DNA from: Marsupella aquatica
Lineage: Eukaryota; Plantae; Marchantiophyta
Length of the DNA: 64,000 nt
Reading direction: 5' to 3'
Assembly: GCA_973895155.1 (NCBI GenBank)
Contig: OZ316892.1
Location: forward strand, 19,321,457-19,385,456
Part shown: positions 18,042-64,000 of the stretch, piece after piece
How the letters are laid out: each line of letters opens with the position of its first letter
How positions within the stretch are numbered: the first letter of the stretch is position 1
The notes under the pieces: model-generated
What the model was told of the DNA's origin: nothing
Databases searched by the model: none
The model's input: only the letters and a program-made list of their open reading frames with translations
Translations under genes and position numbers: made by a program

Positions 18042-18069
18042 CTCTCCCTTAACTAGCATAAGGGATCAC

Positions 18070-22785: not shown

Positions 22786-22797
22786 GCTCTGATACCA
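22786..22797 (-). promoter_or_regulatory. PBS (tRNA-iMet) of copia A
   Basis: Minus strand TGGTATCAGAGC immediately after the 5' LTR. Confidence 0.95.
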
Positions 22798-37767: not shown

Positions 37768-38186
37768 GCATGGACACCCTTCCCGTTTGCTACTAAGCCA
37801 TTTTTGTGGTAGCTTCAATGGTCTTTAGATGCAAGAAGCTTGAGGTAGCTTCAGATACAATGTAGCTTCATTGGAAGGCAAGGAGGCCCATGATACAGAT
37901 CTACACTGCAAGGTCACAACTCGACTTGCAACTTGTACTGGAAACATTTATGAATAAAAAGCAAGTTGATTCACTATGTTCTGATGTATAAAAGTTATTC
38001 ATTCTGCTGGATACTACCTTTAGTTTGTACCTTCAATTTTGGAAGACATTGTCCACATTGTCTTTGAACCACACTTAGCCATTTTTCCAATGATAGGATA
38101 TTTTGCTTCAAGAAGCCATTTGAGCAGGGGTAAATGGTGGATGTTGTGGGTTTTGGAAGACATTGTCCATATTGTCTTCGCACCAC

Positions 38187-38389
38187 TGTGGTGCGTTTCC
38201 CAACCCTCTAACCCCAAGAACAATCCACAACCGGCTATGAACCCCTACTTATGGTCGGCTTACATGATGGTTTGGCTGTCATTCGGCTTGGAAACGCGAT
38301 CTACTCTCGATCCACACTATGTTGGACCAATTCTTTCACTGGGCTTGACTTAGTGAAATACCTAGTACAACCCATCGTTGGAATCGCAA
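38187..38389 (-). mobile_element. LTR terminal (U5) fragment related to the giant LTR at 52674
   Basis: About 160 bp from TGTGGTGCGTTTCCCAACCCTCTAACCCCAAGAAC closely matches 52674-52832, then diverges. Confidence 0.85.
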
Positions 38390-42574: not shown

Positions 42575-45500
42575 TGTGGTGCGTCCCATGGCTCCCTAAA
42601 CCCAAGAAACCCCCCAGCTCAAGCCGATTCCCGCAGGTTTCGTGCTTGGCGAGGCCGTTTCCGCGGCTTAGCGGCATGGGACGCTGCTAACCTTCTACTA
42701 CTACTATTAACATTTTACACACATATACTGGACAGATCCTTCATCGGGTCATGAGATACGTAGCCGGCCTAATATAGGCCTTCCCCTGTCTTCCCCTGTC
42801 TTCCCCTCCGTCTTGTTAGGTATGTTTGGATTCCGCCGCCGGAATGATCCCCAATAGGCTTGGTTAAGCCGCTAAGACCTCTCTCAGCTCGACACATCCA
42901 ACTCTCACTCCCCTGCTTACTTTCCTTCCTTCTGTTGATGTGGGCACTCTTCACACAAGTTAATGCGACACACAAATAGCAAAATGACTCATTCTGACTG
43001 AGTCATACCATGCACTTGCCATACAAACAGTACATCTCATACACAAGTTCTGCGAACTAAGCCGTGAGGCCAACTCTATTCAGCTCTTAGGCATGAGGAA
43101 ACATGAATATACACAAGGGTCACTGTATGACTAACCGAGAGCTTCTCGTACTACTTGATCCCAGCCCGGCTGGTGCAAACTAAAAACTTGCTAAAGAAGA
43201 GGCCCTGAGCTCCCCGCTGCCCAGGTACTTATCCTGGTAGTGGATCCGCCATTCTTTGCATCGTAAGCCTAATCTACTTAACAGTAATCTACTTGCCCGA
43301 ATCTACCTATGTACAGCAAGGCAGGAGCACAAGTGTTGCTCCTACCAGTGGGACCGCAATCCCACTAAGCTAAGTGTCAGGGCCACTCCTGGTTCTGATC
43401 CTAATCCTAAACGTGGAGATCCGTGCCCGCCCTGCCCACTCACGCCTCCTCCCTCCACGTCCGCCCTCCCTAAAAGGAACGGCGCCCTTGCACCGTCACG
43501 ACACCGGTGGTGGATCCTCAATGGACGCCCCCAATACTTCCTCCTCAGCCACTGCCGTTGGCCCGCCTACTGACAGATTACCTGCCCTTGACCGAGTCAA
43601 CTCTCCATCGGCCTGACTGGGTCCACCTCCGGCTTCAGCCTCGACACCGGCCTCGGCAATACCCACGGCTTCGGCCTCAGCCACTCCCACGGCTTCGGCT
43701 TCAGCCAACCCCACGGCTTCGGCTTCCCCTTCCCCTAGGGTAGTTGGATCCTTAGCCGTGACCCTGTCTGGGGTCGGTGCTGGGTCTACCTCCTTGATCA
43801 CCACGGCCTGTGAAGTCGTATTACTCCTTGACCCTGAAGGTTTCCGCTTCTTCTTTGTTGGTGGCTCGGCAGCTGGTCCCTTCCCCTTCCCACTTACCTC
43901 CGGCACTGGTGCAGGTGGCGCGGCTTGTCCTTCGGCAATTACCACCCCTGGTAACTGGTTTGTCCCAACAGGAGATGGACCTGCTGCAGCTAAGCATTTA
44001 AATACTGTGGCTTGTTTCTTCAGCCGCTCTGTTTGGTTGTCGGCCCGCCGCTGTAGGTTCTCCATCTTCCTCGTGATTTCCTCCAACTCCTCTTGGGTTT
44101 CATCCAGGTCCTTACGTGCCCCCTCCAGCTCGTTTTTGGCCTCCTCCTGCTCCCTGTGGGCTTCCTCCAATTCCTTCTTCAAGGTAGCCCTCTCCTCCTG
44201 GGTTGCTCTTAGCTCCTTGTCGAGCTCTGCAATGATGACAGACTCCATCTGGTTCATCTTGGCGTAAGTCTGTTCGAGCATCTCGTCCTTCTCCCTTAGG
44301 TCGGCCTTGAAGCTGGCCGTCAGGGACGCAAGCTCCTGCTGCAGCGCCATAATCCCTTGATAGGATTTCCCTAACTCGACCTCCTTCTGCTCAAGGGCTC
44401 CGCGGATTTTCTCGAGCTCCCCTTTCAACGCCCATTCCTTTCTTTGGGTCTCCGCCATGGCCCGGCTGTTGGCTGTTATGTGGGCCTCCTCTGTATTCTT
44501 CAGCTCTTGCTTCCACTTTTCCCTTTCCTTGATCGTGTCGGCCAACTCTTCCTGCGTCTGAGTCAGTTTATCCTTGATATTCTGATTATCAGCCTGCGCG
44601 GCGTCCAACTGCCCCTGCATGATGTTCAGCTCATGTCGTTTAATCCGCAGTTCATCTTGGGCTTTCTTGGCCGCCCTTAGATCTTCAATCTCGGCTTCCA
44701 TCCTCCTAAGCCGCCGAATGACCTCGTCCTTCTTGCTTCTCTCTAAAGCCACCGCTTCTTCTAATTGGTGCTTCTCCAACTGCTCCCTATGGAAAAAGGG
44801 TCCTACCTCCAACTCCTCTCCAAAGATGCCGAGCGCAAGTTCCCCACACATCTCACCATACTCCATGGCTCTATTCTTAGCGTAGGTGGAGTAAGTAGAA
44901 GTGATCGGCATCGCCCATCGTGGCCTCTGCTCCCAAGCCGTCCTGCGGATCTCTTCAATCGTGGCTAGAGGTTTGCTTCCTTTTTCGGCTAGCCGCCTGA
45001 TGTCCTCCGGCCAATCTCCTCCTGGTAAATCCTTTTCCTTAGCCAGGGCGGCCTCTTCCTCCTGCTTGATTCGCTCCTGAAATTCCTGCACCGTCTGTTT
45101 TATGCCGTCGAAGCTCGGGGGAGCAACATCTGGTGGGGGAGACTCAGGGCTACTCTGCTGGTTGGGGTCCCCTCGCACTACCCTTGGAAGTGTGGGGACA
45201 AACCGGCCACAGGTCCTTACTCCTGGAACGTGATGGTCCGACCCATAGCCGGAATTATCATGGCTGCAGTCCTCCACTGCCTCCTCTACCTCTTGGACGT
45301 CCGGCTTCTCCCTCTCCTCTTCGTTGGTAGGAGCTTCAGGCAATTCTGCCTCAAATTCGGAGCTTGAGGTTCCCACGTACATTCGAACACCTGGCTTGGA
45401 TTCCGGCCTGATTCTCTCCTTGTCTCCAGCAAAGGGGTTTTCTTTTGTGAGCCGGTGTAGGCCTACCTCTGTAGTAGTGTCCTGCATTGTTGCCGTTGCC

Positions 45501-47234
45501 GTTGTTGTTGCCGATGCCGATTTCTTTTCTTTCTCCAGTAGTTTCAGCAGACTCTGCATGCCTGGTTGCTGCATCGGCAAGTCTTCCTTCCTGGGCCTAA
45601 ACACCTGCTCGATCGTAGGACTAACAGGTGGTTGAGGCTTCTCAGCCAACGGCCTCGGCGTTGGAGCTTCCTCGGGTGCCCTTACCTGCAGGGGAAGTAC
45701 CGGGGCAAAAGTCTGACCTCTGGCATACCGGCACAACAGCGGCATGTGATAGCCAAGCCGCGACACGCTCCCCATGCCGATTACCTGCTGCTCCTCCTTT
45801 AAGATCTTCTTCAATTGGTTGAGGAGGTACCCGTTGTAGTCCCGGCTTGGGTCTGGCCTTTCTGCCAGATAGACCTGTGCCTTGCCGATCTCTGCCCTCG
45901 GCAAGTTACAATGCATGGTCACCCGCAAGAAGTCGATCATCTCTCCTATGTGCGGGTTGGTGCAGGTGTTCCGGAAGAAGCCATTCTTCGTTGATGGCCC
46001 GGGGAACGACCGGAACTCCTTGTCAGGCAAGGTCTTCCTGGTATCAACTTTGGTCTTATTGCCCATCGGCAAGCCAAACACTTCGGCAATCACCTTGGGA
46101 GTAAGATAGAAATCCTTCCCATATATCCTCGTGCAATTGGTCTCGGGTTCCCATGACCCCACGAATTCTAATAGGTCTGACTCCGGTACCTCCGGCTTCA
46201 GCCATGGTAATCTTACAAAGGCCTCCAAGCCGGATCCGGCCATGAAGCCTTGGTACTTCTTGGTCTGCATGGCCGTAAAGCATGCATCCTCCTCCCGTGC
46301 AAAATGTAGTTGCACCTCCACCGGTAGGGTTGCCGCCCAGCCCTTCCAGGTGTCATCCCTGGTTGGAATGGCCTTGATGGGATTGACCTCCTCCTCTTCG
46401 GCTTCTCCCTGCCTCCTGCTCTGCTGCTCGGCTGGCTTCTTTGGTGCCGCCGACCTCGTTCTTTTTGCCGGGGTGGCTTCATCGTTGACGGCTCCCTTCC
46501 TCTTCATCTCTGCTGCCGTGGAGGTTTCTCCTAGCACCGTTGCCCGGGTCCACCTTTCCGTGCTACCCTTTAATTCCCAGTGTATGTCATTGCAGTTCTT
46601 GATGGCCTCTCGGATGCCGACGACGCTGTCTTTGCAAAACAGAAGATCGTCGAGTTGATTGGAAGTAGGCGTCCACAGGAACTCGTCCTTGATGAGTTCG
46701 CCTCCTAAGAAAGCCGTCTTCTGTAGCTCCCACAATCGAGCGAGCTCCTGCCGTTCTCGAGCTGCCCTTTCTGACTCCTCGTCCTCGTAAGTCTTGATGT
46801 ACTCAGTTGCCCGTTCGAACAGGCATCCCCAGAAATGTGCCGCTTGATTGACGTTGCTCATACCCTCCTTAGGTTGATCGTCGGTATCTACTCTCTCCCC
46901 GAGTGCTTGCCTAAGCAGCTGACAGTAGTTGGCCTCCCGTAGTCGTCTGCCTAGTTCGTGCTCGCAAATGAGCCACCATCTCCTGCAAGCGCTCCTTACC
47001 CCTCTCCTCTGCCGGTCCTTCTTCCCGTTGATCCTTCCTAGCCGCCGACGCTTAACGCGCCCTAACCCTAATCGGGTTTTCACCCTCAGCCTTACCTCCG
47101 GCCTCTGCCCGGGTTCCATGGTTGCCCCTAATTGTTTATATTTTCCTTGTTTTGTCACTATACTAAGGTGTTCCTAGGGTGCCTTCCTGCTTTACCCACT
47201 TAACCGGCCAAGTGATTCCTGTCTAGGCATCACA
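42575..47234 (-). mobile_element. Giant solo LTR, copy 1 (4660 bp), containing an intact ORF
   Basis: Termini TGTGG...TCACA; perfect 5-bp TSD TCCAT (42570-42574 and 47235-47239); near-identical inverted copy at 54048-58712; homologous to the PBS-adjacent LTR at 52674-62296. Confidence 0.93.
43496..47119 (-). CDS. LTR-encoded 1207-aa protein: basic N-terminus, plant-transposon-protein-like domain, acidic linker, long coiled coil, NLS-like motif and acidic tail
   Basis: Uninterrupted 3624-bp ORF from the first ATG (MEPGQRPEV). Homologous ORFs in both other LTR copies. Heptad-rich region about 44790-44010. KKKRK motif. Confidence 0.88.
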   Translation of the reverse strand: MEPGQRPEVRLRVKTRLGLGRVKRRRLGRINGKKDRQRRGVRSACRRWWLICEHELGRRLREANYCQLLRQALGERVDTDDQPKEGMSNVNQAAHFWGCLFERATEYIKTYEDEESERAARERQELARLWELQKTAFLGGELIKDEFLWTPTSNQLDDLLFCKDSVVGIREAIKNCNDIHWELKGSTERWTRATVLGETSTAAEMKRKGAVNDEATPAKRTRSAAPKKPAEQQSRRQGEAEEEEVNPIKAIPTRDDTWKGWAATLPVEVQLHFAREEDACFTAMQTKKYQGFMAGSGLEAFVRLPWLKPEVPESDLLEFVGSWEPETNCTRIYGKDFYLTPKVIAEVFGLPMGNKTKVDTRKTLPDKEFRSFPGPSTKNGFFRNTCTNPHIGEMIDFLRVTMHCNLPRAEIGKAQVYLAERPDPSRDYNGYLLNQLKKILKEEQQVIGMGSVSRLGYHMPLLCRYARGQTFAPVLPLQVRAPEEAPTPRPLAEKPQPPVSPTIEQVFRPRKEDLPMQQPGMQSLLKLLEKEKKSASATTTATATMQDTTTEVGLHRLTKENPFAGDKERIRPESKPGVRMYVGTSSSEFEAELPEAPTNEEEREKPDVQEVEEAVEDCSHDNSGYGSDHHVPGVRTCGRFVPTLPRVVRGDPNQQSSPESPPPDVAPPSFDGIKQTVQEFQERIKQEEEAALAKEKDLPGGDWPEDIRRLAEKGSKPLATIEEIRRTAWEQRPRWAMPITSTYSTYAKNRAMEYGEMCGELALGIFGEELEVGPFFHREQLEKHQLEEAVALERSKKDEVIRRLRRMEAEIEDLRAAKKAQDELRIKRHELNIMQGQLDAAQADNQNIKDKLTQTQEELADTIKEREKWKQELKNTEEAHITANSRAMAETQRKEWALKGELEKIRGALEQKEVELGKSYQGIMALQQELASLTASFKADLREKDEMLEQTYAKMNQMESVIIAELDKELRATQEERATLKKELEEAHREQEEAKNELEGARKDLDETQEELEEITRKMENLQRRADNQTERLKKQATVFKCLAAAGPSPVGTNQLPGVVIAEGQAAPPAPVPEVSGKGKGPAAEPPTKKKRKPSGSRSNTTSQAVVIKEVDPAPTPDRVTAKDPTTLGEGEAEAVGLAEAEAVGVAEAEAVGIAEAGVEAEAGGGPSQADGELTRSRAGNLSVGGPTAVAEEEVLGASIEDPPPVS

Positions 47235-48327
47235 TCCATTGGCCTTGGGCCCAAGAGGAGCTCACTCCCAAGCCCTCAGAACTCAAAGCCCCTCCGACGG
47301 TCCGGACGGCCATCCTTGAGCCCGGCCCATTTCTCCTTGACCCTACCAGCCATAGGCTAGTCCAAGTCCTTAGTGTGTGTCCCCAGCTTGGCCCCTTGCC
47401 TCGCTAGTGCCACGTCTCATTGCCCACAACTCTCCCCATGCTAAGTCCTCCCCGGATGGCCTATCCGGGCCTGGACCATAAGGGAGCTCGGCGTCGGAGT
47501 TAGCGACGCGCGGAGCTAAGTGTTAAGGTAGTCGAGTTCCGTGACTTGGGCCCTCACTCCGTGTAAAAGAAGTGGACCCCCCTGCCATCGGGCCCTTTTC
47601 CTGTTTACCCCTTGTTATTTCCATTTTACTATTAAAAGTTCCCTTATTACCGGTAATAATTATAATTATTAGTTCAAAATGAATAAAAATTACCCTTTGA
47701 GCATTTGCACGTCCTCCATGTATTAGTTAAGACTGAGGGCCAAGGGGCTCCAGCAAAGTAAAAAAAATCCGCCGCGTCGCCTTCACTTCGCGTCAAGTGC
47801 CAATCCCGGGCTCAAAATGACCGCCTCGCCGTGATCAAACCGTTGAGCCGTAGCACTTCGCGTTTCTTCCACCAAGTTGGACGTCACGAAGAGAAACCCG
47901 GTTCAGATGTGAACAAGCTCCATAGCTTGTGAAAAAACCTGAACGCCTCCGTCACTTGTCATGTCTCACTCGGTAACAACTCGACAGCAACTCAGTTACC
48001 AAAACAACCAGCTCGCTTCAACCTTCAACTTGAGCTATAATGTGCGATCCCTCCCGCACCGCACAGCTCACACCGTTGAAAAATGCAAACTCAGGTCTCT
48101 CCCCCAAATACCGTCGAATATGAATAAACCCTGAACGATGCAAACTTCAATTCCTCTGCACCACGGATACCGATCAACAAGTTCTAACCACCGTTAGAAA
48201 GCCCTCTTACTAACCTATCCGCTCAGCCACACATATTCGAGTTTCATGCGACTAAACTCCGAATGTACCATCGAAAATGAACGTTGGAAAAACCTATCAC
48301 AAAAAAACCTTGTCACCTCCCAGGCAT

Positions 48328-48339
48328 GCTCTGATACCA
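48328..48339 (-). promoter_or_regulatory. PBS (tRNA-iMet) of another LTR element
   Basis: Minus strand TGGTATCAGAGC, 2 nt from the LTR end ...CTCAACA. Confidence 0.85.
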
Positions 48340-48341
48340 CT

Positions 48342-49159
48342 TGTTGAGCATAGACAACATTCGTAAAGGCAAGCCCATGAACCATCCAACGCACAAGAGT
48401 CGACACAGAGAGATACGTGGTTCACCTCCACATGAGGCTACATCCACGGGAACACACAAGAGCTTTACTGCACTCTAGGCCGACCGGCCATACCAAGCAT
48501 CCACAGCGCAAGCTCTTCCTATCTCTCAACTAGCTCCATAACAATGAGCCTAAGTTCCACCAGGGTCTGGCATCAGCCCTGGCTATATGCGCAACAGCAC
48601 TAGCGCTAACATTAGCTAAGTCCTAACCCGAGTTAGACTAACTATGGTTAGCTCATGAGTCACAAGAGTAGAGCAATATGTAACAATACAGAGGCTAGGA
48701 GGAACTCCTCTTGGAGACTCATGCTCATTCTTATGGAGCAACTTGGAGAGAGAGGAAAGCTTGAATGTGCTATGGAAACTTGGTGTGGCCGAAGTGCCTA
48801 AGTAGAGCTATAATAAAGTCTCTTGTATTCTTGTGTATGTAGCTTCAAGGAGGTGAATCACATATCTATTGTGTTGGTGCATTGCTTGCTGGTTGCTTGA
48901 GTTCTCATGTGTATGTTGCCAGCACTTTTCCTTACATATCTCGTTTGCTGGCCAAATCCTACCAAGACAAACAACCAAACCACATTCAGTTGGGGGAAAG
49001 GTTTCCCCATTTCGCACAAATTAACAGATCCAACTCTCACAAATCTCACTAGGGAGTGGGACAAATTAATTTGCCTTGTCAAGCTCAGTGCCCGGCTCAG
49101 TGCTTGCTGACCCTATATCCTTGGAGAAACCTACCATTTTATGATCAAATGTGTTAACA
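48342..49159 (-). mobile_element. 5' LTR of an LTR element whose internal region (below 48327) shows no recognisable coding
   Basis: TGTTGA...TTAACA termini; adjacent PBS; U5-like TACGTGGTTCACC..CTACATCCACGG. Right boundary tentative; partner LTR not found. Confidence 0.65.
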
Positions 49160-50143
49160 AGAAAGAGCATACCATAATTTTGGTGGAAAGCATGATTGAG
49201 GGGTACATAAAAAGGATCTCCGAAGTCTCCACCAAAAGGAGTGAGTCCTCATGAATTTTGCAATAAATTGGGGGGTGTTACACTCAAGGGCCAAGATGTA
49301 GAAGGACCAAATCAAAGGCTGGATTTGAATATCAATAAAAAATGCATTAAGTATTCATTTGGACCGGTTGAAGTACAGTCTAGATGCATAATTCCTATCT
49401 TGGACTTTAGCAAGGACGATGTATAAATGTTCTCCTTGGATCCCGTGACATTGAATAGAGCAAGTTGCGGCTCGCAGTGTGTTTGAATATAAGGACTCAT
49501 AGTCGATGCTTTTGAAAACAAGGACTAAAGTGGGCAAGGACTCATAGTCGATGTTTGAAATTGATCGCGGATTTTGTTCTAAGCACAAGTTAGGCTTGAA
49601 TTGTCTTGGGACGGGCAGGCACCAACAACGAAGGGCTTAGGGGTTAGGGATGGCTATGGTGGTCGATTACTCATTGAAGGAGCTTGCGCCATACACACGC
49701 AATGTGAGAGTTGAGTTGTTGGGGATGGGGCATAGTTGGATAGTTGAAGCTTTGGATCGCGAGTTGATGATTCATCGTGGAAGTTTGATTTACAGCAATG
49801 CATCTTGGAGATTGCCCATAGGAGGAGCACTGTGATTGAAGCGTTGGTGGACCTTAGGCGATTGTTGAGCTTTGCCATGGTGCTCGCAGGATCAAATGAG
49901 TAGGCAAGTTTAGAAGTATTGGCCTAGTATCAGGTAGAATCTGAATGCTCAGATGCTCCGCATCCCGCTCAATACCTCCCAAGTTCTGTCTAGTACTTGA
50001 TGCGGTGCCTGATATCGGACGGCCAGTCTTGCTGAAGTCCACGATGCCCTAGCAAGAGAGAGATCAGAAAGGCGAAACCTTAGCAGACGCAAGTCCTATT
50101 GTAATAGGCAGCAACGGATCACCCATGGACAATTGATTGCACA

Positions 50144-52613
50144 TGGTGGTTTGTTTGGTTCTAGAGGTGTGCTTGGTGAAGTCAGTGGTGACACACTTTT
50201 GTCCTCCACTGTTTCCTTTGAAGCGGAAACAATTTCTTCTTTCATTCGCTTGACAGCTCTCTTGATATCCTTCTGGAGTGCAACCTCATTCTCGACCTTT
50301 TCCAGCTCTACCAACTGCTCCTTCACACTAGCTGTGACTGCCAGAAAAAATAAACTGGGATGCGTTCGATCAAAATCACTATCCTGGGAAGGACTGGGAT
50401 CACCAAGTATGACTTGCGGGTCCTCAGTGACAGGGGCTTTGTCGCTAGAACCCGAAGACGTGGAATCAGACGCATCTTCCTTCCATGGCTTCTTTTTCTT
50501 GGTAATCCCCTCCCACCTTTGCTTCCTTCTGGTGGATCTAGTGGACACACGGTAACAATCGGCATCAACCTCTTCTTCAGAATAAGTGGACAGGGCGTCT
50601 GCTTCATTGTCAGAAGGTGCAAATTCCCCTCGTGCTTCTTCACGCCATCCTAAGTCAATATGATTTACCTGGGCTCCTCCTGGCATAGTTCCTTCTAGCA
50701 GTACCTTTGGTGCGGGTTTGACAGGTACAGCAGCCATCCCGGCTAACCAAATAGGGCATTGGGTAAGTATATGCCCTTCTCCTTTGCAACCCATACAAAG
50801 CTTGACTGGCTGACCATCCGCCTGCTTCCTTGCATTGGTGCACTCCCAGGAGAAGTGACCTGGTTGACCACAGTTGTAGCATGCTGCAAATCTCTGAACA
50901 TTTGGTTGTGGAGGTGTAGTTGGATTTTGAATGATGCGTGGATACATCTCCCTTGCATTGGTTCTCAATGCTCCCCACAAAGAGGTGGGTCGGTTAGCCA
51001 AATCTCGGGCTCCGACCTCACTAATGCCGAACACACTATCCGCGGCATCTCCAAGTATGTACTCCACCTCCAACTCTCCTATTGTTCCCTCGGTTATCAA
51101 TCAAACATGCTTTGTACCACGCTTTGGACAGACATCCTTGTGATGTCCGGTGGTATAACAATGAGCGCACCATACTGAGGTGTCATCGGCTGCCTCCCTC
51201 GTCTTTGGCTGGGAGTTGGCTAATAACATCTTTAACTGCTCTGTGATCGCTGTCAATTGATCTGGAGATGCTTTCTTAGGATCAACCTTGGTTCTCACCT
51301 TCTCCACAATGTTATCCTTCTTTTTGAATTTCTTTTTTTACTCTTTTCATCATCCTCTGAACTGGAAGATGTTTCACCCTTACCGGTAGCATCCTCAGAG
51401 CTGCTACTCCCCTCCCTGGCTTTCTTGGATTGCTTTTTCTTTTCTTTTTTCTTGCCTGATCCCTCTTCAGAAGATGAGTCCTTGCATTTTTAGTGTTTTT
51501 TCCTGCTCATGATATCTGCATTGATGTAGAGCTGAATATCATGGATTACTTCGGCTAGAGATTCCGGATTCCCCTTCCGAATCGCAAAACTCATCTTCTG
51601 TGGTAAAGCATTAACCAACTATTGCAACTGCATTTCATTTGATGCATTGGTCTTGGTTTGCCGTACCAATTTGTGGAATCGTTGCAAAAACTTTCAGAAA
51701 GACTTGTTCTCCTTGAATTGAAGCCGTCCTAGCTTCAACATTGCCAATTCGGATGTCCCAATGGGACGGAATTCTTTGACAAATAGTTGCTTAAAGGTGA
51801 TCCACTCATTCTGCTCTCCGGGTTCCAAATTATAGTACCACGGTCGAGCCTCACCTTTAAACAACCCAGGTAAGATTTGCATCTTGATAGCAGACTCTCC
51901 ATTAGCCGTTGCGGTCAATTGCAAGATTGAGGGGGGCAAAAGGACGCAAAAAGGATTAGCTCAAAAAGGAGAGAAAAAGGACTCAAAGATCATAAGATTT
52001 AGTTGAACACCACTTCCATACAGGTTTGACACACTTCCAAAATTATTGTGCACACTTCCAAGAAGATTGGGACTTCCTAAAAGCCTGGACACACTTCCAA
52101 AGACTTGGCATGCAAGATCTCACCATCCAATCTCAACAAACTAATCCTAGCCATTTGGTGTAACACCTTGTCCACCCCTTGTAAATTGGAAAGGACTAGA
52201 ATCCTTTTGGTGGAGAAATTGGATATCCTTTTTGCCCCCCTCAAGCTTGCAATTGACCTTGCCGTACCATCAAACTCCTCAAGCCAGTCATCCGGATCCT
52301 CCTCATGCTTTCCATGAAATGCCTTATAATGGATTTGTGATCTTTGGCTGAGCCATGGTGTTGCTCGACCACCAAATTGTGGGTCTGGCTCACCCATTCC
52401 GAGTACTGGTGAACTGGGTTGGGTACTGGGCACTTTGCTACTTGACAGATCCCCTTCTTCACTCACCAGTTCCTCTTCAAAAGCACTTTGCGACCCGCCG
52501 TTGCGGGTTACAACCTTCACTTTCCGTGACTCCTTCCACTTTTGAATTTGCTGCACCCGTGATTCTTCCCTTTGTGCTGCTTGACCTTCCCTTGGTGTGA
52601 ATTCGTTCATCAC
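50144..52613 (-). pseudogene. Ty3/gypsy gag with three CCHC zinc knuckles, truncated before pol
   Basis: FHGKHEEDPDDWLEEF, LFKGEARPWY...W..FKQLFVKEF (retrotransposon gag pattern). Knuckles CAHCYTTGHHKDVC, CYNCGQPGHFSWEC and CMGCKGEGHILTQC. Stops, frameshifts and a MITE insertion. Confidence 0.9.
51913..52258. mobile_element. MITE 1 (346 bp) with 4-bp TSD
   Basis: TIRs GGTCAATTGCAAGATTGAGGGGGGCAAAAGGA / TCCTTTTTGCCCCCCTCAAGCTTGCAATTGACC; TSD TTGC. Removing it restores gag frame FDGTATANGE. Confidence 0.92.
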
Positions 52614-52651: not shown

Positions 52652-52669
52652 CCCCTCCATCTAGCGCCA
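52652..52669 (-). promoter_or_regulatory. PBS, tRNA-Asn type as in Tat-lineage gypsy elements
   Basis: Minus strand TGGCGCTAGATGGAGGGG, 4 nt after the LTR end CACA. One mismatch from TGGCGCTAGAAGGAGGG, the complement of the plant tRNA-Asn(GUU) 3' end as I recall it. Confidence 0.8.
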
Positions 52670-54047
52670 AAAATGTGGTGCATTTCCCAACCCTCTAACC
52701 CCAAGAACTATCTACAACCGGCCATGAACCCCTACTTATGGTCGGCTTATGGTGGTTTGGCTGTCATTTGGCTTGGATACGCGGTCTACTCTCGATCCAC
52801 ACAATGCTGGACCAATTCTTTCACTGGGCTTGCAAATTGTGTATTGCTGAGACGCCTAATTCTCAATTGACTTCATCGGGTATGTTTGTATTCCGCCCCC
52901 GGAATGTACCTCTACGGCTTAATCTCTTAAGTCGGCTGAAGGTTTTTCTTAGACCGGCTCAACCCACACTTTAACCAACAAAACACTCTCAATCCTCACT
53001 TTTCTCTCAGAGTTTGGTTTGGCAGTCTCCAATCAAGACAATGCGATCGTATAGCTTCGCAGTCGCTCTATCTGACTGAAATTGATCAAGCGACAAGTAT
53101 CACAACACACAATGCCATGACTGTAAGCATCTGCAAACTAGGCATCAAGGCCAACTCAATTCAAACAATTGCACAGAAATGGAAATTGTGGTTTACTGAT
53201 AATCCGCGATCTAGATCTAGCCGAGAGGTTATGCTAGTAATACTGACTTTACACTAGAGTCTTGACTAAGAAAAAGCCTCCCGAGCCACGCTGCACAGGT
53301 TTTTATCCTTGCAGCGCGTCCAGGGGAATCGGCGGAAATCCAAACCACAAATCATGGCCTTCCACCGTGAAATCTAGCTAATTAACTAACACCTAACATA
53401 TTTTGACTTAACCTGGAACCTTGCGGGAACCAAGCATCTAATACAACGTAAGCCGACAGGGCGCTACTTGCCCTGTCCCATCCTACAACGGCCGCGCCCT
53501 TCTGGCCCAAACCCTTCTCCTACCGCCACGTCCTCCTTCCAACTGATGATTGGCCCTCCTTAATTGTCAGATGACTGGCGATAGGCCCGAATCTTCCGAC
53601 TCTGCACCTTCTCCTGCCATCAGCTCCGGCTTGATCCCTTTGGCTTCCTCGACCTCGGGTTCTGATTTATTGGCCCTGGCATTGGCAGTGGCATCTTCCT
53701 AGGAAACGGCTTGGATAGCGTTGGCCTTTACTTCCTCAATCAAAGCTTGCTCTCCAATCCGTTCGGTATCGATCTTCCATGGCTTTACATTTTGGTAGTC
53801 CATGGTGGCTGTACCGGTGTCTGAACCTGTTACCGCAGCTCCAAGTTCATTGGCATTACTTATCTCTACATACCATGGCTGCCTTCATAGCAACAGTCCC
53901 ACAAATGTGAGCAGCCATACTCTCAACCTCCTCTAGAGTGGCCTTGAGAGGTATCCCAGTAGTACTTGCTGGCCCCATGAATGTTTTGGCCACATCTGCT
54001 ACCAACTGCATTGCCTTACCCCCAGTTACTCTTGACAATATAGATGT

Positions 54048-57000
54048 TGTGATGCCTAGACAGGAATCACTCGGCCAGTTAAGTGGGTAAAGCAGGAAGG
54101 CACCCTAGAAACACCTTAGTATAGGGACAAAACAAGGAAAATATAAACAATTAGGGGCGACCATGGAACCCGGGCCGAGGCCGGAGGTAAGGACGCTGGG
54201 GGTGAAAACTCGATTAGGGTTAGGGCGCGTTAAGCGTCGGCGGCTAGGAAGGATCAACGGGAGGAAGGACCTGAAGAGGAGAGGGGTAAGGAGCGCTTGC
54301 AGGAGATGGTGGCTCATGCGAGCACGAACTAGGCAGACGACTATGGGAGGCCAACTACTGTCAGCTGCTTAGGCAAGCACTCGGGGAGAGAGTAGATACC
54401 GACGATCGACCTAAGGAGGGTATGAGCAACGTCAATCAAGCGGCACATTTCTGGGGATGCCTGTTCGAACGGGCAACTGAGTACATCAAGACTTACGAGG
54501 ACGAGGAATCAGAAAGGGCAGCTCGAGAACGGCAGGAGCTCGCTTGATTGTGGGAGCTGCAGAAGATGGCTTTCTTAGGAGGCGAACTCATCAAGGACGA
54601 GTTCTTGTGGACTCCTACTTCCAATCAACTCGACGATCTTCTGTTTTGCAAAGACAACGTCGTCGGCATCCGAGAGGCCATCAAGAACTGCAACGACATA
54701 CACTGGGAATTAAAGGGTAGCACGGAAAGGTGGACCCAAGCAACGGTGCTAGGAGAAACCTCCACGGCAACAGAGATGAAGAGGAAGGGAGCCGTCAACG
54801 ATGAAGCCACCCCGGCAAAAAGAACGAGGTCGGCGGCACCAAAGAAGCCAGCCGAGCAGTAGAGCAAGAGGCAGGGAGAAGCCGAAGAGGAGGAGGTCGA
54901 TCCCATCAAGGCCATTCCAACCAGGGATGACACCTGGAAGGGCTGGGCGGCAACCCTACCGGTGGAGGTGCAACTACATTTTGCACGGGAGGAGGATGCA
55001 TGCTTTACGGCCATGCAGACCAAGAAGTACCAAGGCTTCATGGCCGGATCCGGCTTAGAGGCCTTTGTAAGATTACCATGGCTGAAGCCAGAGGTACCGG
55101 AGTCAGACCTATTAGAATTCGTGGGGTCATGGGAACCCGAGACCAATTGCACGAGGACATATGGGAAGGATTTCTATCTTACTCCCAAAGTGATTGCCGA
55201 AGTGTTTGGCTTGCCGATAGGCAATAAGACCAAAGTTGATACCAGGAAGACCTTGCCTGACAAGGAGTTCTGGTCGTTCCCCGGGCCATCAACGAAGAAT
55301 GGCTTCTTCCGGAACACCTACACCAACCCGCACATAGGAGAGATGATCGACTTCTTGCGGGTGACCATGCATTGTAACTTGCCGAGGGCAGAGATCGGCA
55401 AAGCACAGGTCTATCTGGCAGAGAGGCCAGACCCAAGCCGGGACTACAACGGGTACCTCCTCAACCAATTGAAGAAGATCTTAAAGGAGGAGCAACAGGT
55501 AATCGGCATGGGGAGCGTGTCGCGGCTTGGCTATCACATGCCGCTGTTGTGCCGGTATGCCAGAGGTCAGACTTTTGCCCTAGTACTTCCCCTACAGGTA
55601 AGGGCACCCGAGGAAGCTCCAACGCCGAGGCCGTTAGCAGAGAAGCCTCAACCACTTGTTAGCCCTACGATCGAGCAGGTGTTTAGGCCAAGGACGGAGG
55701 ACTTGCCGATGCAGCAACCAGGCATGCAGAGTCTGCTGAAACTACTGGAGAAAGAAAAGAGATCGGCATCGACAACGACAACGGCAACGGCAACAATGCA
55801 GGACACTACTCCAGAGGTAGGCCTACACCGGCTCACAAGAGAAAACCCCTTTGCTGGAGACAAGGAGAGAATCAGGCCGGAATCCAAGCCAGGTGTTCGA
55901 ATGTATGTGGGAGTCTCAAGCTCTGAATCTGAGGCAGAATTGCCTGAAGCTCCTACCGACGAAGAGGAGAGGGAGAAGCCGGATGTCCAAGAAGTAGAGG
56001 AGGCAGTGGAGGACTACAGCCATGATAATTCTGGCTATGGGTCGGACCATCACGTTCCAGGAGTAAGGACCTGTGGCCGGTTTGTCCCCACGCTTCCAAG
56101 GGTAGTACGAGGGGACCCCAACCAGCAGAGTAGCCCTGAGTCTCCCCCACCAGATGTTGCTCCCCCGAGCTTTGACGGCATAAAACAGACGGCGCAGGAA
56201 TTTCAGGAGCGAATCAGGCAGGAAGAGGAGGCAGCCCTGGCTAGGGAAAAGGATTTACCAGGAGGAGATTGGCCGGAGGACATCAGGCGGCTAGCCGAAA
56301 AAGGAAGCAAACCTCTAGCCACGATTGAAGAGATCCGCAAGACGGCTTGGGAGCAGAGGCCGCGATGGGCGATGCCGATCACTCCTACTTACTCCACCTA
56401 CGCTAAAAATAGAGCCATGGAGTATGGTGAGATGTGTGGGGAACTTGCGCTCGGCATCTTTGGAGAGGAGTTGGAGGTAGGGCCCTTTTTCCATAAGGAG
56501 CAGTTGGAGAAGCACCAATTAGAAGAAGCGGTGGCTTTAGAGAGAAGCAAGAAGGACGAGGTCATTCGGCGGCTTAGGAGGATGGAAGCCGAGATTGAAG
56601 ACCTAAGGGCGGCCAAGAAAGCCCAAGATGAACTGCGGATTAAACGGCATGAGCTGAACATCATGCAGGGGCAGTTGGACACCGCGCAGGCTGATAATCG
56701 GAATATCAAGGATAAACTGACTCAGACGCAGGGAGAGTTGGCCGATACGATCAAAGAGAGGGAGAAGTGGAAGCGAGAGCTGAAGAATACAGAGGAGGCC
56801 CACATAACAACCAACAGCCGGGCCATGGCGGAGACCCAAAGAAAGGAATGGGCGTTGAAGGGGGAGCTCGAGAAAATCCGCGGAGCCCTTGAGCAGAAGG
56901 AGGCCGAGTTAGGGAAATCCTATCAAGGGATTATGGCGCTGCAGCAGGAGCTTGCGTCCCTGACGGCCAGCTTCAAGGCCGACCTAAGGGAGAAGGACGA

Positions 57001-58712
57001 GATGCTCGATCAGACTTACGCCAAGATGAACCAGATGGAGTCTGTCATCATTGCAGAGCTCGACAAGGAGCTAAGAGCAACCCGGGAGGAGAGGACTACC
57101 TTGAAAAAAGAACAGGAGGAAGCCCAGAAGGAACTAGAGGAGGCGCGCAAGGACCTGGATGAGACCCAGGAGGAGTTGGAGGAAATCACGAGGAAGATGG
57201 AGAACCTCCAGCGGCGGGCCGACAACCAAACAGAGCGGCTGAAGAAACAAGCCGCAGTATTTAAGTGCTTGTCTTCATCAGGCCCAACTCCAATTGGGGC
57301 AACCAAGTTACCAGGAGTGGTACTGGCCGAAGAAAAAGCCGCGCCACCTGCACCAGTGCCGGAAGTAAGTGGGAAGGGGAAGGGACCAGCTGCCGAACCA
57401 GAAAAGAAGAAGAAGCGGAAACCTTCAGGGTCAAAGAGTAATCCGACTCCACAGGCCGTGGTGACCAAGGAGGTAGACCCAGCACCAACCTCCGGCATGA
57501 ATACGGCAATAGATTCCGATATCATCAAGGGTGGGGGTGGTGCGGCCCAAGCCGAACTACTCGGTAATGAGGCCGGTATCCCAGATCCGCCTCTTGAGCA
57601 GGCCGGGGAGACCGTAGCCGAGGCTGAGGCCGTAACCGATTCCCGAGCCGGTGCCGACGCCGATGGTGGACCCAGTCAGGCCGATGGAGAGTTGACTCAG
57701 TCAAGGGCAGGTAATCTGTCAGAGAACGAACCTACGGCAGTGGCTGAGGAGGAAGCGTTGGGGGCGTCCATTAAGGATCCACCACCGGTGTCGTGACGGT
57801 GCAAGGGCGCCGTTCCTTTTAGGAAGGGCGGACGTGGAGGGAGGAGGCGTGAGTGGGCAGGGCGGGCGCTGATCTCCAAGTTTAGGATTAGGATCAGGAC
57901 CAGGAGCGGCCCTGACACTTAGCTTAGTGGGATTACGGTTCCACTGGTAGGAGCAACACTTGTGCTCCTGCCTTGCTGTACATAGGTAGATCCGGGCAAG
58001 TAGATTACTGTTAGGTAGATTAGGCTTACGCTGCAAAGAATTAGGCGGATCCACTACCAGGATAAGTACCTGGGCAGCGGGGAGCTCAGGGCCTCTTCTT
58101 TAGCAAGTTTTTAGTTTGCACCAGCCGGGCTGGGATCAAGTAGTAAGGGAAGCTCTCGGTTAGTCATACAGTGACCCTTGTGTATATTCATGTTTCCTCA
58201 TGCCTAAGAACTGAATAGAGTTGGCCTCACGGCTTAGTTCGCAGAGCTTGTGTATGAGATGTACTGTTTGTATGGCAAGTGCATGGTATGACTCAGTCAG
58301 AAGGAGTCATTTTGCTATTTGTGTGTCGCATTAACTTGTGTGAAGAGTGCCCACATCAACTAACAGAAGGAAGGAAAGTAAGCAGGGGAGTGAGAGTTGG
58401 ATGTGTCGAGCTGAGAGAGGTCTTAGCGGCTTAACCAAGCCTATTGGGGATCATTCCGGCGGCGGAATCCAAACATACCTAACAAGACGGAGGGGAAGAC
58501 GAGGGAAGGCCTAGATTAGGCCGGCTACGTATCTCATGACCCGATGAAGGATCTGTCCAGTATATGTGTGTAAATGTTAATAGTAGTAGTAGAAGGTTAG
58601 CAGCGTCCCATGCCGCTAAGCCGCGGAAACGGCCTCGCCAAGCGCGAAACCTGCGGGAATCGGCTTGAGCTGGGGGGTTTCTTGGGTTTAGGGAGCCATG
58701 GGACGCACCACA
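54048..58712 (+). mobile_element. Giant solo LTR, copy 2 (4665 bp), inserted into LTR copy 3
   Basis: Termini TGTGATG...CACCACA; TSD GATGT/AATGT (4/5); reverse complement of 42575-47234. Confidence 0.93.
54163..57796 (+). pseudogene. LTR-encoded protein, copy 2, disrupted in its N-terminal quarter
   Basis: Same protein as 43496-47119. Small indels near 54195 and 54317; CGA>TGA near 54545; CAG>TAG at 54860-54862. The rest (over 940 codons) is open. Confidence 0.9.
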
Positions 58713-59794
58713 AATGTCGGCTTTGGCACTTCAGTATTTCCGGCTACCACGCCACTAGTGGGAGACCGTCCAATTGGTGATCCGTGCCCGGCTTCGGCAT
58801 ACTTTCACAACTTCTCTATTTGATTATCTGCACGCCTCTACAAGCCGATCATCTTCTCTTTGGCCTCCTCCAGCTCTTGGGATAAAAATCCTCAACTTCC
58901 TCATTAAGCCAATGCGCTTCATCCTTGGCCGCCTTGAGCTCCTTGTTTAAGATCTGCACGATCTCAAACTCCTTTTCATCCCAAGCGACTCTCTGGGAAT
59001 CGTTGATGATTTCCAACTTTGTGACCTCATCCATCCATGCCTGCTTTGTCCGAGTTATCTCCTCCTACAGCTCCTTGCATATCTGTTGAACTCGACTCAG
59101 GTGATCATTGGCCGCAGTGCACGTGGCGTCCTCATGCTTCTCTCGCATGGCCTCCAACCGGTCGAATAACTTGTCATACTTCCTTTGGGCTTCTGCCAAG
59201 GCTTTCTCGCTCTGGGTGGCTTGGTCCTTTGCCGTCTTTCTGAGCCTCTAGACTTGCCGATTTAGACCCTGTACCTCCGCTTTTGAATTGGCTAACTCCA
59301 GCTCTACTTTCATCAATTTTTCTTTGATCTGTTGGTTATCCAATTGGTAGTTTTCCAATTGGTTGTTTGCCACCTCCAATTCCTGCTGCTTAGCCAAGAG
59401 ATCCTGTTGAGCTTGTTGATCAAACTTTGTCTTAGCAACTTTGGCTTCCATGGAGCAAAGCCGAGCGATTACCTCCTCCTTCTTTAATTGCTCCAACATC
59501 ATTGCCTCCTCCAGCCTTGTCTGGTCAGCCATTTCCTTTCTAAGAAATGGTCCGGATTCTAACTCATTGCCAAAGATTTCTAAGGCTAGCAGTCCACACA
59601 TGTCTCCATACTCCCTAGCCCAATCCGTCGCATATTTTGACCTGCCAGGTGATACTGGCATTTGCCAACGAGGCCATTTCTCCCAAGCTTCTGCCCGTAA
59701 CTGATTGAAGTCAATGAGAGGCGCGACCTGCTTCTCACTAAGCCATTTTATTTCCTCCGGCCAATCACCGCCTGGTAGCTGCCGTTCTTGTATG

Positions 59795-60137
59795 ATCAAT
59801 CTATTCATTAAAAGTGAATTATTATTCAATTTATGAACATTTGGGTAACAGAAAGTGTACATTTGGCCTTCAAAAAGTGTACAATTAGGCAAGAAACAAA
59901 GTTGATTACCATCAGATGTACCACCATGTTCATCATTTGTAAATAAATTAGGATGAGACTGCTTCTAGTCAAGATCATTTTTGTTATCTCAAGTTTACAA
60001 TTGATCATTTAGGTGTAGAGTATTATACCATAGTGTACCTTTTGGGTTTCAAAAGTGTATATTTAGAGACCAAAAAGTGAACATTTAGAGGCCCAAAAGT
60101 GAACAAAATACAATACACTTTTAATGAATAGGGTGAT
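59795..60137. mobile_element. MITE 2 (343 bp, AT-rich) with 4-bp TSD
   Basis: TIRs ATCAATCTATTCATTAAAAGTG / CACTTTTAATGAATAGGGTGAT; TSD TATG; internal AAAAGTG(T/A)ACA repeats. Removing it restores ARNDIQERQLPGGDW. Confidence 0.92.
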
Positions 60138-62671
60138 TATGTCATTTCGGGCCCTCCACTCATCGAGTTTCTCCTTGAAACCTGCCTTGCCTTCCTTCAT
60201 TCGGTCAAATTCCAATGGTGTCACGTCCGGTGGCAGAGACTCCAGGGTTTTTTGATCCTCCAGCTTGCCATAAAAGACTGAGGGAAGTCTTCTACAAAAC
60301 CTTCCCAACGTTCTCACTCCTGGCACCGGTCTCTCCCCATGATTGACATAATCATTGTCGTAGTCATCCACATTAACCTGACTACCGAGCATGCTAGCCT
60401 CTTCTGCAAAGCCCCCAATCTCCTCCACTGAGTATTGTTGGGCTGCCACTGGTTGATTTACCTCCACCAGTTCCTCCACTCGGGCCCGGCTAGAAGCTCT
60501 AAGGACTGGCCTCTCTTTACTACGGCCTCGGCTTCCGTCTTTTGACTCTGAATCCACTTGCTCATCTCATTTCTTTCTTTTTTTGGCAGTCATTTTCCTC
60601 TCTACTAGTTGAATACCTGCATATGGGTTATTACGAGTAGGCCGTCGCAACGGATTTCTCACCACATCATATGTTACCACCTCTGGTTCCTTGAGAGGGG
60701 AATTCTCCCATCCCTGGACTGCCTATATTGCCGGCCTCTTCTCTTGTCGTCGCTTGTTCAAGGGCAGCTCGTCCTCCTCCTCCACTCGTGCTGTAATCGG
60801 CATCCTCTCCTGTAGTGGTAACACTGGTGCAAAAGACTGGTTTCTTGCATATCGGCAAAGTAATTGCAGATGGTACCCTAGTTTGGATACCGCTCCTTCC
60901 CCAATACTCTACTTCTCTTCATTCAATGCCTTCTTTAACTACATTAAAAGATAGCCAATGTAGTCTCGGCTTGAATCGATATTCTCCACCAAAAATACCT
61001 GGGCCTTGCCGATCTCTGCTCTCGGCAATGTATAGTGTAGCGTGACTTGTAAGAAATCAATCAACTGCCCCACATGTGGATTAGTGCATTGATTTCTAAA
61101 GAACCCATTCTTAGTAGAGGGCCTTGGAAATGATCGGAATTGATTATCTGGCAATGTCTTTCATTGCTCCACCTTAGTTTTATTCCCCTATGGAAGAGCA
61201 AAGACGGCTTCAATTAGTGTTGGCGTTAATTCCACCACCTTTCCATACATCAGTGTTGTGTTAGAAGAAGCCTCCCAGCATCCTATGAAGTCTAACAAAT
61301 CTTTGTCTGGTATGTCAATTAATCACCATGGTAACCGAATGAATCCCTCTAAGCCGGTGTCGTTCATGTATCCAAAATACTTGTTATCCTGGATAGCACA
61401 GAAGGCCTCATCTTCTTCTCATGCAAACTGTAGTTGTAAGTCGGCAGGTAGCTTATCCACCCAACCCGTCATAAACTTATCCTCCACTGCCCTATCATGA
61501 ACTGGCACGGCTTCAGCCTTGGCCTGCCTCTCCGATCGATTCCGCTTAGCTAGTGTTGCAGACGCCGAACTACCTTTACGCTTCATCTCTTCAGTTCCTG
61601 AGAACTCTCCAAGAATGGCTTCCTTGGACCAAGCCAAAGTGTGATCCTTCAACTCCCACACCGGCTGCCCAGCGTTCTTAATTGCCTCCCAAATTCCAAC
61701 GACTCGATTCTCTCTGATCAGCAACTCATCAAGCTCGGCACTGGTGGGAATCCATACGAATTTCTCAAGTACCTCCTCCGTTCCCACAAACGCCATCTTA
61801 TGAATTCCCCATAACCGAGCGAGCTCCGCCCGTTCCCTTGCTGCTCATTCTGGCTTGACGTCTTCGTAAGTTGGTATGAGCTACCGTGCTTCTTCAAGCA
61901 AACAGCCCCATAACTTGGCCGCCTGATTCACCGTGGTCATTCCACCAAAAGAAAAAGGAGCTTGAACAATTCCCTAACCACCTCCCTTGATCAATCGGCA
62001 GCTGCTTCCGCGGTCCTAGGTTGATCGAATAAGCAAATGAGCAAGTGTATAGAATGTCGGTCCCCTCCCTGCGAAGCCGCTTCCCTATGGCTTGCCTGAT
62101 TAAGTCTGGATTAGGTCATAACCCTAATCCTACTCAATTGTGACCGTTGGATCTTACCTGATCGCAATCCTCCTCATAACACATTGCAATCGGCTTTGGT
62201 CTTTATTCCTACCTTATACGATTTAGCCATTATTTTTATTTAGCCATTATTTTAGGCTTTTACCTAAGTACTTTGTGATCCTGGCAAGGCATCACAAGAA
62301 TTCGTGCGGAGGCTTCCCAAGAGGCTGCCAACATCATAGTGAATGCAAGTACACAAGCTACTAGCATCCTATAGTCTACACAATTACAATGTGACAAATT
62401 GACACAAAGAAGACAAACTCTCCGCAATCGCATAGGGCGTCAAGAAGCACGTCTTCGGTCCTTAGATGGGCAACTTCTTGGTGAGAGCATGCATGGCCAA
62501 ACTTCAGAGCTGCAGCAAGAGAGTTCAGCTTCGAGGCAAGCAAACTGTCAATCCTCTGCTTAATTTAGAGCACGAGATGCTCAAAGAAAGTGAGCAGCAT
62601 ACTGGAAGAAAAAGGGTAATACACGCACAGAGGCTTGGTAATGTGGGTCTGCTGGTGATTTAGAAGACGAA

Positions 62672-63732
62672 TTGAATTCCAATAGGAGAACACAAAGTGT
62701 TCAGTCTCAGGTGTCTGTGGCGGTGATATCCATCCTGAGTAGATTGGACAAATTTAATTTGTCTACAAGGAAGCTATTTTTCACTAAGTTTATGCTCCAT
62801 CCTTCCTTGAAGAAGTACCTCCCTGTAGTTTTTGGGACTCGTCGGAGAGATGTAGCGATACTTGCTGCAGTTGCTGACCTAAAGAATTGCTTGCAAAAAG
62901 TGAAGACTGCAAAGCGGAAAGACCATCTAGGTGCAAAGCAGTCTATCTTGATAGTTGCATTGGCAGGCCAGGCCACAGTAGTGAATAGGTATCAGACTTC
63001 AGTGGCTGGGGCTTTGGGTATCAAACGACAAATCATATATAAAGCTTCAAGAAGGAGGAAGTCCATAGATTCCGATTGTTTGATAAGGTTTCCAATGGGG
63101 GAAAGGAAAGTGAGAAGCGACAAAATTTCAGCTGAAGTCCGAAGAATTGTGGAAAAGTTTTGGGAATCAAATACTCGAATCTCTCCTTGTGCCAAGGACA
63201 AGGCTAGACTAAGATTGAGTATAAATGTGTACGAGGAGCATCGGGTGCATTGGCTGGAGGATACCCAGGTTAGATTTTGTTAATTTGTCATTATCAATGA
63301 CATTCAAATAGGGCTTACAATAGGGTACAGGAGCTTTCATGTTCATCAGTAAGTGATTTGAACTCTACTGCATCTTTGTTTACAATGATTGAATATGTTT
63401 TGAAGCAAGGCTTGCATCTTTTTCAGGTGGAGTTTTTTCTAAAAGTCCAGGAGTTTTGTAGCAGAGACGATAATGGAGTTAATATAGGCTTCAGGTCTTT
63501 TAAGTATATGAAGCCTTACTACATTCGTCCTATAAAAGACATAAACATTTGTTGTTGTAAGCAACATGTGAAATGGACCTCTTGAAGGAGGCAATCAACA
63601 AATTCAGGAAGCATGAACACAGTAAGCATTGCTCTTGTGATTGCCCCATTTGCACATCAGTTGATGCTCCTTTGCAAAGTTATGTAGCTTCTAGAACAAC
63701 AATAACATCTGTACGGGGCTGGATAGAGGGAG
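62672..63732 (+). mobile_element. Sola2-like DNA transposase, N-terminal fragment with one intron (63269-63426)
   Basis: RKVRSDKISAEVRRIVEKFW...RISPCAKD...IGFRSFKYMKPYY...CCCKQH resembles the N-terminal pattern I recall for Sola2 transposases. GT..AG splicing joins DTQ|VEFF in frame. Catalytic domain not in the window. Confidence 0.6.
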
Positions 63733-64000
63733 TGTCACGTCATCGGCTGCGGCCTTAACTCAGACTTCAGCTTAGACGGGCACATCCCTCGTAAATCTAA
63801 GGGTTCGGGCAGGAAAGGAAGCACGTAATGCACCTTATTCTCGTAAACTAGCGCTAAGTGCGCATACTGCTAAATACGGACACCTCCTAGGTATGGTTTG
63901 TGTTCCGCTGCCGGAACGTACCTTAGTCGATAGCAGGATCGACCCCGGCTTAAGGGCTTCTAAGCCTTCGTGCTGTCCGCCTTCGATCCGGATTCGATGA
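63733..64000. mobile_element. Probable start of another LTR interrupting the transposase
   Basis: Abrupt switch to GC-richer non-coding sequence beginning TGTCACG. Confidence 0.35.

Follow-up and report, generated by a model that had tools for sequence, protein, structure and literature searches.

The window analysed here, a stretch of 64,000 nucleotides of Marsupella aquatica DNA, contains three copies of a long terminal repeat (LTR), and all three carry a sense open reading frame (ORF) at the same LTR position (Table 1). Copies 1 and 2 start with TGTGATG, end with CACCACA, and were 93.8% identical in opposite orientation when the window was compared with itself. Each is bordered by its own 5-bp target duplication, within the 4-6 bp expected of an LTR, and thus they are separate insertions. 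The possibility that they are the terminal inverted repeats of one element was ruled out by these separate duplications. We also found the empty sites of both: the joint 42569>47235, which lacks copy 1, is present in contigs from three of four public runs, and contigs of run X5 read unbroken over the insertion point of copy 2. Copy 1 is inserted in another, high-copy repeat, and copy 2 within the ORF of copy 3, which is thereby split.

Copy 3 has a net length of about 4.6 kb after subtraction of copy 2, its target duplication and a small insertion, and is followed directly by a primer-binding site (PBS) and gag. This PBS may be of the tRNA-Asn type. The gag is about 840 codons long, its linker is rich in lysine and serine, three of its motifs resemble Cys/His knuckles, and no protease comes after it. 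No protease or reverse transcriptase (RT) was found in the ORFs of the copy 3 element scanned down to 48900, nor a paired 3' LTR or pol for it in the window. Apart from copy 3 itself, this LTR is represented in the window only by a 160-bp fragment of its 3' end (38187-38347, 92.5% identical). Taken together, the first-pass annotation was right to call these sequences LTRs: copy 3 is a 5' LTR, as indicated by the PBS and gag, and copies 1 and 2 are solo LTRs, as indicated by target duplications and empty sites. In addition, loose ends past the end of copy 2 have CTAG at positions 10-13, in the register of the copy 3 PBS, in all three covering runs (consensus agreement 0.41-0.55), a hint that members of the copy 1/2 family exist as 5' LTRs as well. 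Of the 16 public runs listed, six, under four organism labels and from four studies, contain half or more of the words of the ORF.

Table 1. Positions in the window of the LTR copies, their ORFs and associated signals.
Feature	Position	Strand	Remark
Copy 1	42575..47234	-	4660-bp solo LTR, TG...CA, perfect 5-bp target duplication TCCAT
Copy 1 intact ORF	43496..47119	-	1207 aa, element sense strand
Copy 1 core domain, aa 250-476	45692..46372	-	predicted fold of VANC21 DNA-bound chain
Copy 1 putative coiled coil, about aa 790-1040	44000..44752	-	E/K/Q/R-rich, nearly without Pro/Gly
Copy 2	54048..58712	+	4665-bp solo LTR; target duplication GATGT/AATGT
Copy 2 ORF	54163-57796	+	2 stops; 5' frameshift (2-bp deletion near 5' end)
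Copy 3	52674..62296	-	Ty3/Gypsy-type 5' LTR, TG...CA; termini homologous to copy 1
Copy 3 decayed ORF	58709..61943	-	homologous to copy 1 aa 86 to about 1070; includes 60939..61796
Copy 3 core domain	60855..61460	-	stop-broken; predicted VANC/PMD-like fold
AT-rich MITE-like insertion in copy 3 ORF	59801..60131		about 330 bp, 16-bp terminal inverted repeats
Copy 3 PBS-like sequence	52652..52669	-	4 nt past LTR
Copy 3 element, broken gag	50096..52613	-	Retrotrans_gag E 4e-5, zf-CCHC E 2e-7
5'-splice-site-like AGGTAAG, copy 1	47091-47097		LTR +138
5'-splice-site-like AGGTAAG, copy 2	54185-54191		LTR +138
5'-splice-site-like AGGTAAG, copy 3	62153..62159	-	LTR +138
Palindrome, copy 1 3' non-coding part	42830..42845		6-bp arms, 4-nt spacer
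Palindrome, copy 2	58453-58468
Palindrome, copy 3	52890..52905		within 26/28-nt identical island
Palindrome, third LTR family	63902-63917		two-sided change, pairing kept

Several other features were observed around these copies. The host of copy 1 (41000-48340) is GC-rich and apparently non-coding. A Met-type PBS at 48339 adjoins an LTR-like stretch from 48343, which shows internal inverted similarity (48403-48559 vs 48712-48874) and for which no partner LTR was found. Beyond the fragment at 38187-38347 lie 2.2 kb of unrelated, purine-skewed sequence. A near-complete Ty1/Copia element is located at 17800-23037 (-). Its 242-bp LTRs are 98% identical, and stops and frameshifts break up its gag, protease, integrase and RT. 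It is followed by more decayed Copia pieces (23125-30780), including protease plus GAG-pre-integrase at 24148-24756, RT at 30283-30780, and LTR-like repeats at 23125 and 27239. A gene-like region at 34960-37770 consists of repeated short exon-intron units (duplicated 260-390-bp blocks, GT...AG borders), and short tandem arrays are found at 12041-12205 and 32465-32844 (32-35-bp and about 175-bp units). At 62642-63620 (+) there is a decayed, intron-containing transposase-like gene with a Cys-rich motif, and its 213-aa piece has no Pfam match. A transposase-like gene is interrupted by the probable 3' end of a third LTR family (63710-64000, -), with a TG terminus at 63710 and the palindrome island of Table 1 180 bp in, which continues past the window edge.

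The intact ORF of copy 1 runs from LTR +116 to about 920 bp short of the 3' end and fills about 78% of the 4.66-kb LTR. Its protein is ordered as an N-terminal helical domain, a core, a Pro/acidic linker, a helical domain, a long coiled coil and a variable tail. The coiled-coil region gave weak matches to long helices only. Four simple basic matches resembling nuclear localization signals were found, and the protein has no transmembrane segment (maximum 19-residue hydropathy 1.09). Conservation starts at Met87 (46861), a Met common to all three copies. Differences between copies 1 and 2 at the three codon positions number 3/4/1 upstream of Met87 and 16/25/54 over aa 87-1040, so, on this comparison of sequences, aa 1-86 are probably mostly non-coding. 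Copy 3 is a pseudogene, with 11 in-frame stops in 872 aligned codons and two insertions (the MITE-like sequence and copy 2). Past copy 2, similarity of its C-terminal tail to copy 1 was not above shuffles. The copy 1 tail contains a 24-nt tandem repeat (43639-43726) coding for units of the (V/I)AEAEAVG type. Between copies 1 and 2 the tail differs by 16%, with many indels, vs 2-3% in the flanking regions, which suggests a hypervariable or recombined segment.

The first-pass annotation proposed that the ORF is conserved as protein between two diverged LTR subfamilies. We found that the translations of copies 1 and 3 are indeed collinear (tblastn E 2e-138). A block counted by hand as 53/70 identical was reproduced exactly (copy 1 aa 364-433 vs window 61154-60947), and the motifs W.PTS..LD.LL, VPGVRT.GRF, LPGGDWPE.I..L and EYG.MCG.LAL.IFG.ELE.GPF are all present in the tblastn alignment. 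The similarity had been placed at 60939..61796, where it was observed, but its extent was underestimated, since it continues well outside this interval: the tblastn segments cover 61943-60159 (45%, 619 columns, one frame), 59796-58888 (37%, 303 columns) and 58879-58718. The non-coding similarity had been described as patchy; it is weak, but collinear through the entire 3' part of about 900 bp, with both termini matching. In this 3' part, copies 1 and 3 are 57% identical vs 47% for shuffles, and the alignment score is about 16 SD higher.

To evaluate the coding signal, we compared reading frames over aa 86-476. Amino-acid identity is 58% in the true frame. Four other frames give 24-27%, with many stops, and the antisense mirror frame, which carries 9 stops in copy 1, gives 48%. 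Neutral simulation at equal nucleotide identity gave 31% amino-acid identity (maximum 36% in 200 runs), vs the observed 58%. In the same region 285 of 377 second positions match, vs 127 third positions (p 2e-31), and nucleotide divergence in the ORF is not equal to that of the non-coding LTR at every codon position. Over 861 codons, with stops masked, copies 1 and 3 have 45% amino-acid identity and position identities of 0.59/0.66/0.35. The fourfold-site identity is 0.25 (n=155), which is saturated at the random level. The dN/dS is about 0.09 (GY94; likelihood ratio vs 1 = 295) and 0.05 in the core, values that are approximate because dS is saturated and in which the decay of copy 3 inflates dN. 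These values are far from 1 and bear out the proposal of long-term purifying selection. The linker (aa 477-625) was indistinguishable from neutral in this comparison (ratio 3.1). Between copies 1 and 2, dN/dS is 0.23-0.35 over aa 50-1040, and the tail is near neutral (0.57-0.84). Among public-run variants, 11 of the 21 in the ORF are synonymous (within 40 of 665 variant rows listed), and 0 of 12 indels fall inside it (12 of 31 indels listed).

The LTR ends and the 3' non-coding part are homologous in the two families and the ORF is at the equal position, indicating that the gene was present in the common ancestral LTR. It was thus the element lineage that was under selection, and not a pair of host paralogues captured separately. 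This observation agrees with the earlier proposal of a functional element gene rather than a recently captured fragment, and we consider it very probable that the ORF is a selected, element-borne gene. The selection signal is past and lies on the parental elements, not on copy 3 itself. The gene may have been acquired by ancient capture from a host gene.

To find relatives, the protein was searched with phmmer against 1.84 billion representatives. We obtained 23 matches at E <= 0.001, of which 22 are genuine (best 42% identical); P0013, a bacterial repeat protein, was dropped as spurious. Four of the 20 matches looked up carry a plant name, all of them Calypogeia fissa 'unnamed protein product' (24-28% identical), and the remainder, P0013 aside, are unnamed or hypothetical. 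Calypogeia fissa is a liverwort, and from these relatives the host would likely be a non-seed plant, perhaps a bryophyte. The longer homologues keep the order of core, proline-rich linker and coiled coil; P0005, P0007 and P0009, which match the N-terminal domain only, were left out of alignment A1. A profile from 21 outside homologue rows only, which had been recruited with copy 1 as query, matched the copy 3 core at E 3e-48. In Pfam, neither five copy 1 segments (up to E 10) nor the 23 phmmer-matched proteins (up to E 1) matched PMD (PF10536), Transposase_32 (PF20167), Transposase_28 or ATHILA (PF03078). Word-seeded protein searches returned no homologue, PDB sequence searches gave coiled-coil noise only, metagenome and viral contig scans revealed no relative, and Rfam had no match over 38000-64000.

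We then modelled the core, having recorded a guess of a PMD-like fold and an anti-silencing role ahead of the fold search. The AF2 model of copy 1 aa 250-490, built on a 26-row alignment, reached pLDDT 83 and pTM 0.81; the single-sequence model (pLDDT 37) was unusable. Of the 36 rows that Foldseek gave against the PDB, the top one is VANC21 bound to its target DNA (E 0.25, probability 0.69, TM 0.47), and the other 35 have TM of 0.16 or less. Re-alignment of 188 chains with VIA left VANC21-DNA alone at Z>=2 (Z 8.2, rmsd 4.2, 212 aligned). In a VIA search of 48,161 chains without Foldseek it was again best (Z 7.8, rmsd 4.1, 207 aligned), with the next chain at 2.0. Sequence identity of the core to VANC21 is 6-10%, the Foldseek E of 0.25 is not significant alone, and unrelated models can reach VIA Z near 8; the weight of the match comes from its cover of the full domain and the gap to the next chain. 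A viral fold library returned one unnamed row (E 0.015, rmsd 20.5 A), which is not interpretable.

Features from a language-model atlas also resemble Transposase_32/ATHILA, for copy 1 (0.88/0.87) and for P0011, a 23%-identical liverwort relative (0.84/0.83). These scores lie below the 0.9 lead threshold, with 126-143 shared features vs mostly 170 or more for same-family matches, and the top atlas match of copy 1 is an unnamed cluster (0.91). At eleven core positions where copy 1 has a basic residue, half or more of the aligned rows have K or R. On the predicted model, the core is likely to have a VANC/PMD-type fold.

Next to the gene, the most conserved non-coding island of the LTR is a palindrome. 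It occurs four times in the window vs 0.065 expected, always at a distance of 180-255 bp from an LTR end that is known or probable. Judged from its sequence, the palindrome could be a binding site or an RNA hairpin, and its folding energy as a hairpin is no more favourable than that of shuffled sequences (z -0.3 to -1.4). The four non-coding LTR stretches showed neither tandem arrays nor enriched short motifs, with no 7-9-mer above shuffles. At the other end of the LTR, the leader of all three copies contains a TATA-like box (+79/+95), AGGTAAG, and a shared telobox-like 11-mer (+162 to +168), which suggests that it holds a promoter and an intron. A possible intron starting at +140 has a conserved donor, but copy 3 shows no evident in-frame acceptor to match it.

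Two groups of plant transposon proteins offer a comparison. VANC, encoded by VANDAL (MuDR) elements, shares the predicted core fold over the whole domain (VANC21-DNA, PDB 9LNJ/9LNK), and is likewise a transposon-encoded accessory protein with a coiled coil. Its binding sites are in the non-coding parts of its own elements, and it takes away silent marks (PMC10398659, partial text). VANC is structurally like MAIN/PMD, and coiled-coil multimers have been predicted for VANC and the Athila domain (PMC13547354 and preprint 10.1101/2024.04.02.587720, both partial text). However, VANC is encoded by a MuDR DNA transposon, whereas here the gene lies in an LTR followed by a PBS and gag, and VANC is described as dicot-specific in the partial text of PMC13547354. 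The host proteins MAIN, MAIL1 and MAIL2, reported structural relatives of VANC, also act at DNA motifs: the PMD-C proteins MAIL1 and MAIL2 oppose Polycomb/H3K27me3 at motifs of which one is palindromic (10.1101/2024.09.27.615353, partial text). They are angiosperm host genes, and have no sequence match to the LTR ORF.

The second group is the extra ORFs of OTA-clade Ty3/Gypsy elements. These are common in Athila, Tat, Ogre and Retand, and PMD is present in 57% of Ogre elements (PMC6317226, partial text). Like the protein studied here, PMD in Ogre, Transposase_28 in Retand and Athila ORF-1/Transposase_32 combine a conserved globular domain with an SMC-like coiled coil. A 5-bp target duplication is also common to both, and the atlas features resemble Transposase_32/ATHILA. 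The only elements given a tRNA-Asn PBS in supplement 3 of PMC6317226 (partial text) are Athila, TatII and Retand, and Ogre LTRs reach 6.5 kb (PMC6431247, partial text). Yet the OTA-clade ORFs are described as internal, placed either upstream of gag or downstream of pol and before the 3' LTR (PMC7264820; PMC6317226 and PMC11963269, partial texts), and a further account places extra ORFs in the internal region (PMC11728184, partial text), whereas the present ORF lies wholly within the LTR and does not match their Pfam models. A gene in the LTR is known from MMTV, where sag occupies U3, is kept in solo LTRs and has dN/dS below 1 among dead copies (PMC4667437, partial text). Its coding U3 is likewise preserved in solo LTRs, but the protein and function are unrelated and the virus is a mammalian retrovirus.

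The literature searched, in its titles and abstracts and with most subscription papers outside its scope, contained no gene within a plant LTR, and the partial texts of PMC12885004 and PMC13468544 on liverwort Tat elements mention no LTR-internal gene. PMD-fold extra genes in Gypsy elements are thus already known, and their placement inside a plant LTR was not found in print.

Our preferred reading, to which we give a probability of about 0.45, is that the ORF encodes an accessory protein that has a coiled coil, acts in the nucleus and binds specific DNA sequences, and whose anti-silencing or promoter-activating action would keep cognate LTRs active. The protein, probably nuclear and DNA-binding, would bind a sequence in its own LTR as a coiled-coil multimer and leave the promoter free of silencing marks, and the conserved palindrome, about 215-255 bp from the LTR 3' end, is a candidate target. 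Expression would probably be driven by signals within the initial ~370 bp of the LTR, or result from read-through into the 3' LTR. The gene may have begun as a 3' extra ORF later enclosed by the U3 boundary; a gene enclosed by U3 is copied into both LTRs by reverse transcription, and every solo LTR retains it. VANC targets are fast-diverging tandem repeats (PMC10398659, partial text), whereas the present LTR has no tandem target arrays and its palindrome is conserved rather than fast-changing, which argues against this reading. Likeness of fold does not establish a function, and among host PMD proteins both silencing and anti-silencing roles occur.

The same DNA-bound fold is also consistent with a selected DNA- or chromatin-binding protein that steers integration into heterochromatin or repeats, or tethers the integration complex. 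Both solo LTRs are nested, copy 2 within copy 3 and copy 1 within a high-copy repeat, and Tat-related domains are enriched at the centromeres of a liverwort (PMC12885004, partial text). However, a preference cannot be read from two insertions in a window that is dense in repeats, and the only solved relative is an anti-silencing factor; we regard integration targeting as unlikely. If the selected accessory protein instead acted on RNA or particles, in nuclear export, packaging or as a scaffold, the palindrome would be an RNA hairpin; this would fit the pairing that survives a two-sided change in the third LTR family, the long coiled coil, and the unrelated roles of retroviral U3 genes. Since the hairpin energy is not above shuffles and the fold match is a DNA-binding protein, this role appears rather unlikely, and an env-like variant is also unlikely because the copy 1 protein has no transmembrane helix.

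It is quite improbable that the fold likeness is coincidental and the core of a genuine selected accessory gene is unrelated. The E of 0.25, the Z of about 8, the identity of 6-10% and the lack of a Pfam match would allow it, but the match spans the whole domain far above all other chains, and an independent feature search also points to extra-ORF domains of plant retrotransposons. Finally, separate capture of two host paralogues whose selection was earned in the host, or a 4.66-kb cargo element that is not an LTR, would suit the missing 3' LTR and pol of the copy 3 element in the window, but is very improbable given the equal ORF offset between homologous ends in both families, the constraint between copies 1 and 2, the PBS and gag adjoining copy 3, and the hint from CTAG past copy 2.

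An extension of the preferred reading, a DNA-binding accessory protein that keeps its LTRs active, is that the LTR forms an anti-silencing cassette, with promoter, VANC-fold gene and target in one 4.7-kb unit, and that the fold is an old retrotransposon invention. We consider this doubtful. If it were true, solo LTRs that recombination leaves behind would go on supplying, in trans, a factor lifting silencing from the family, and bryophyte lineages would have had the VANC/PMD/Athila-ORF fold earlier than its adoption by host MAIN-type genes and by VANDAL elements.

What the extra ORFs of plant LTR retrotransposons do has been described as unknown (PMC7264820). For VANDAL DNA transposons, anti-silencing proteins that recognise specific sequences are established, and the intact copy 1, with a predicted VANC-like fold and a candidate target, provides a directly testable retrotransposon case. 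The origin of the PMD fold, in Gypsy elements or in host genes, has been called fully open in a survey of angiosperms only (PMC5418596, partial text); the LTR ORF family, whose named relatives are liverwort proteins, bears on this question. Annotation that treats LTRs as non-coding would miss such a gene, and solo LTRs would not be inert.
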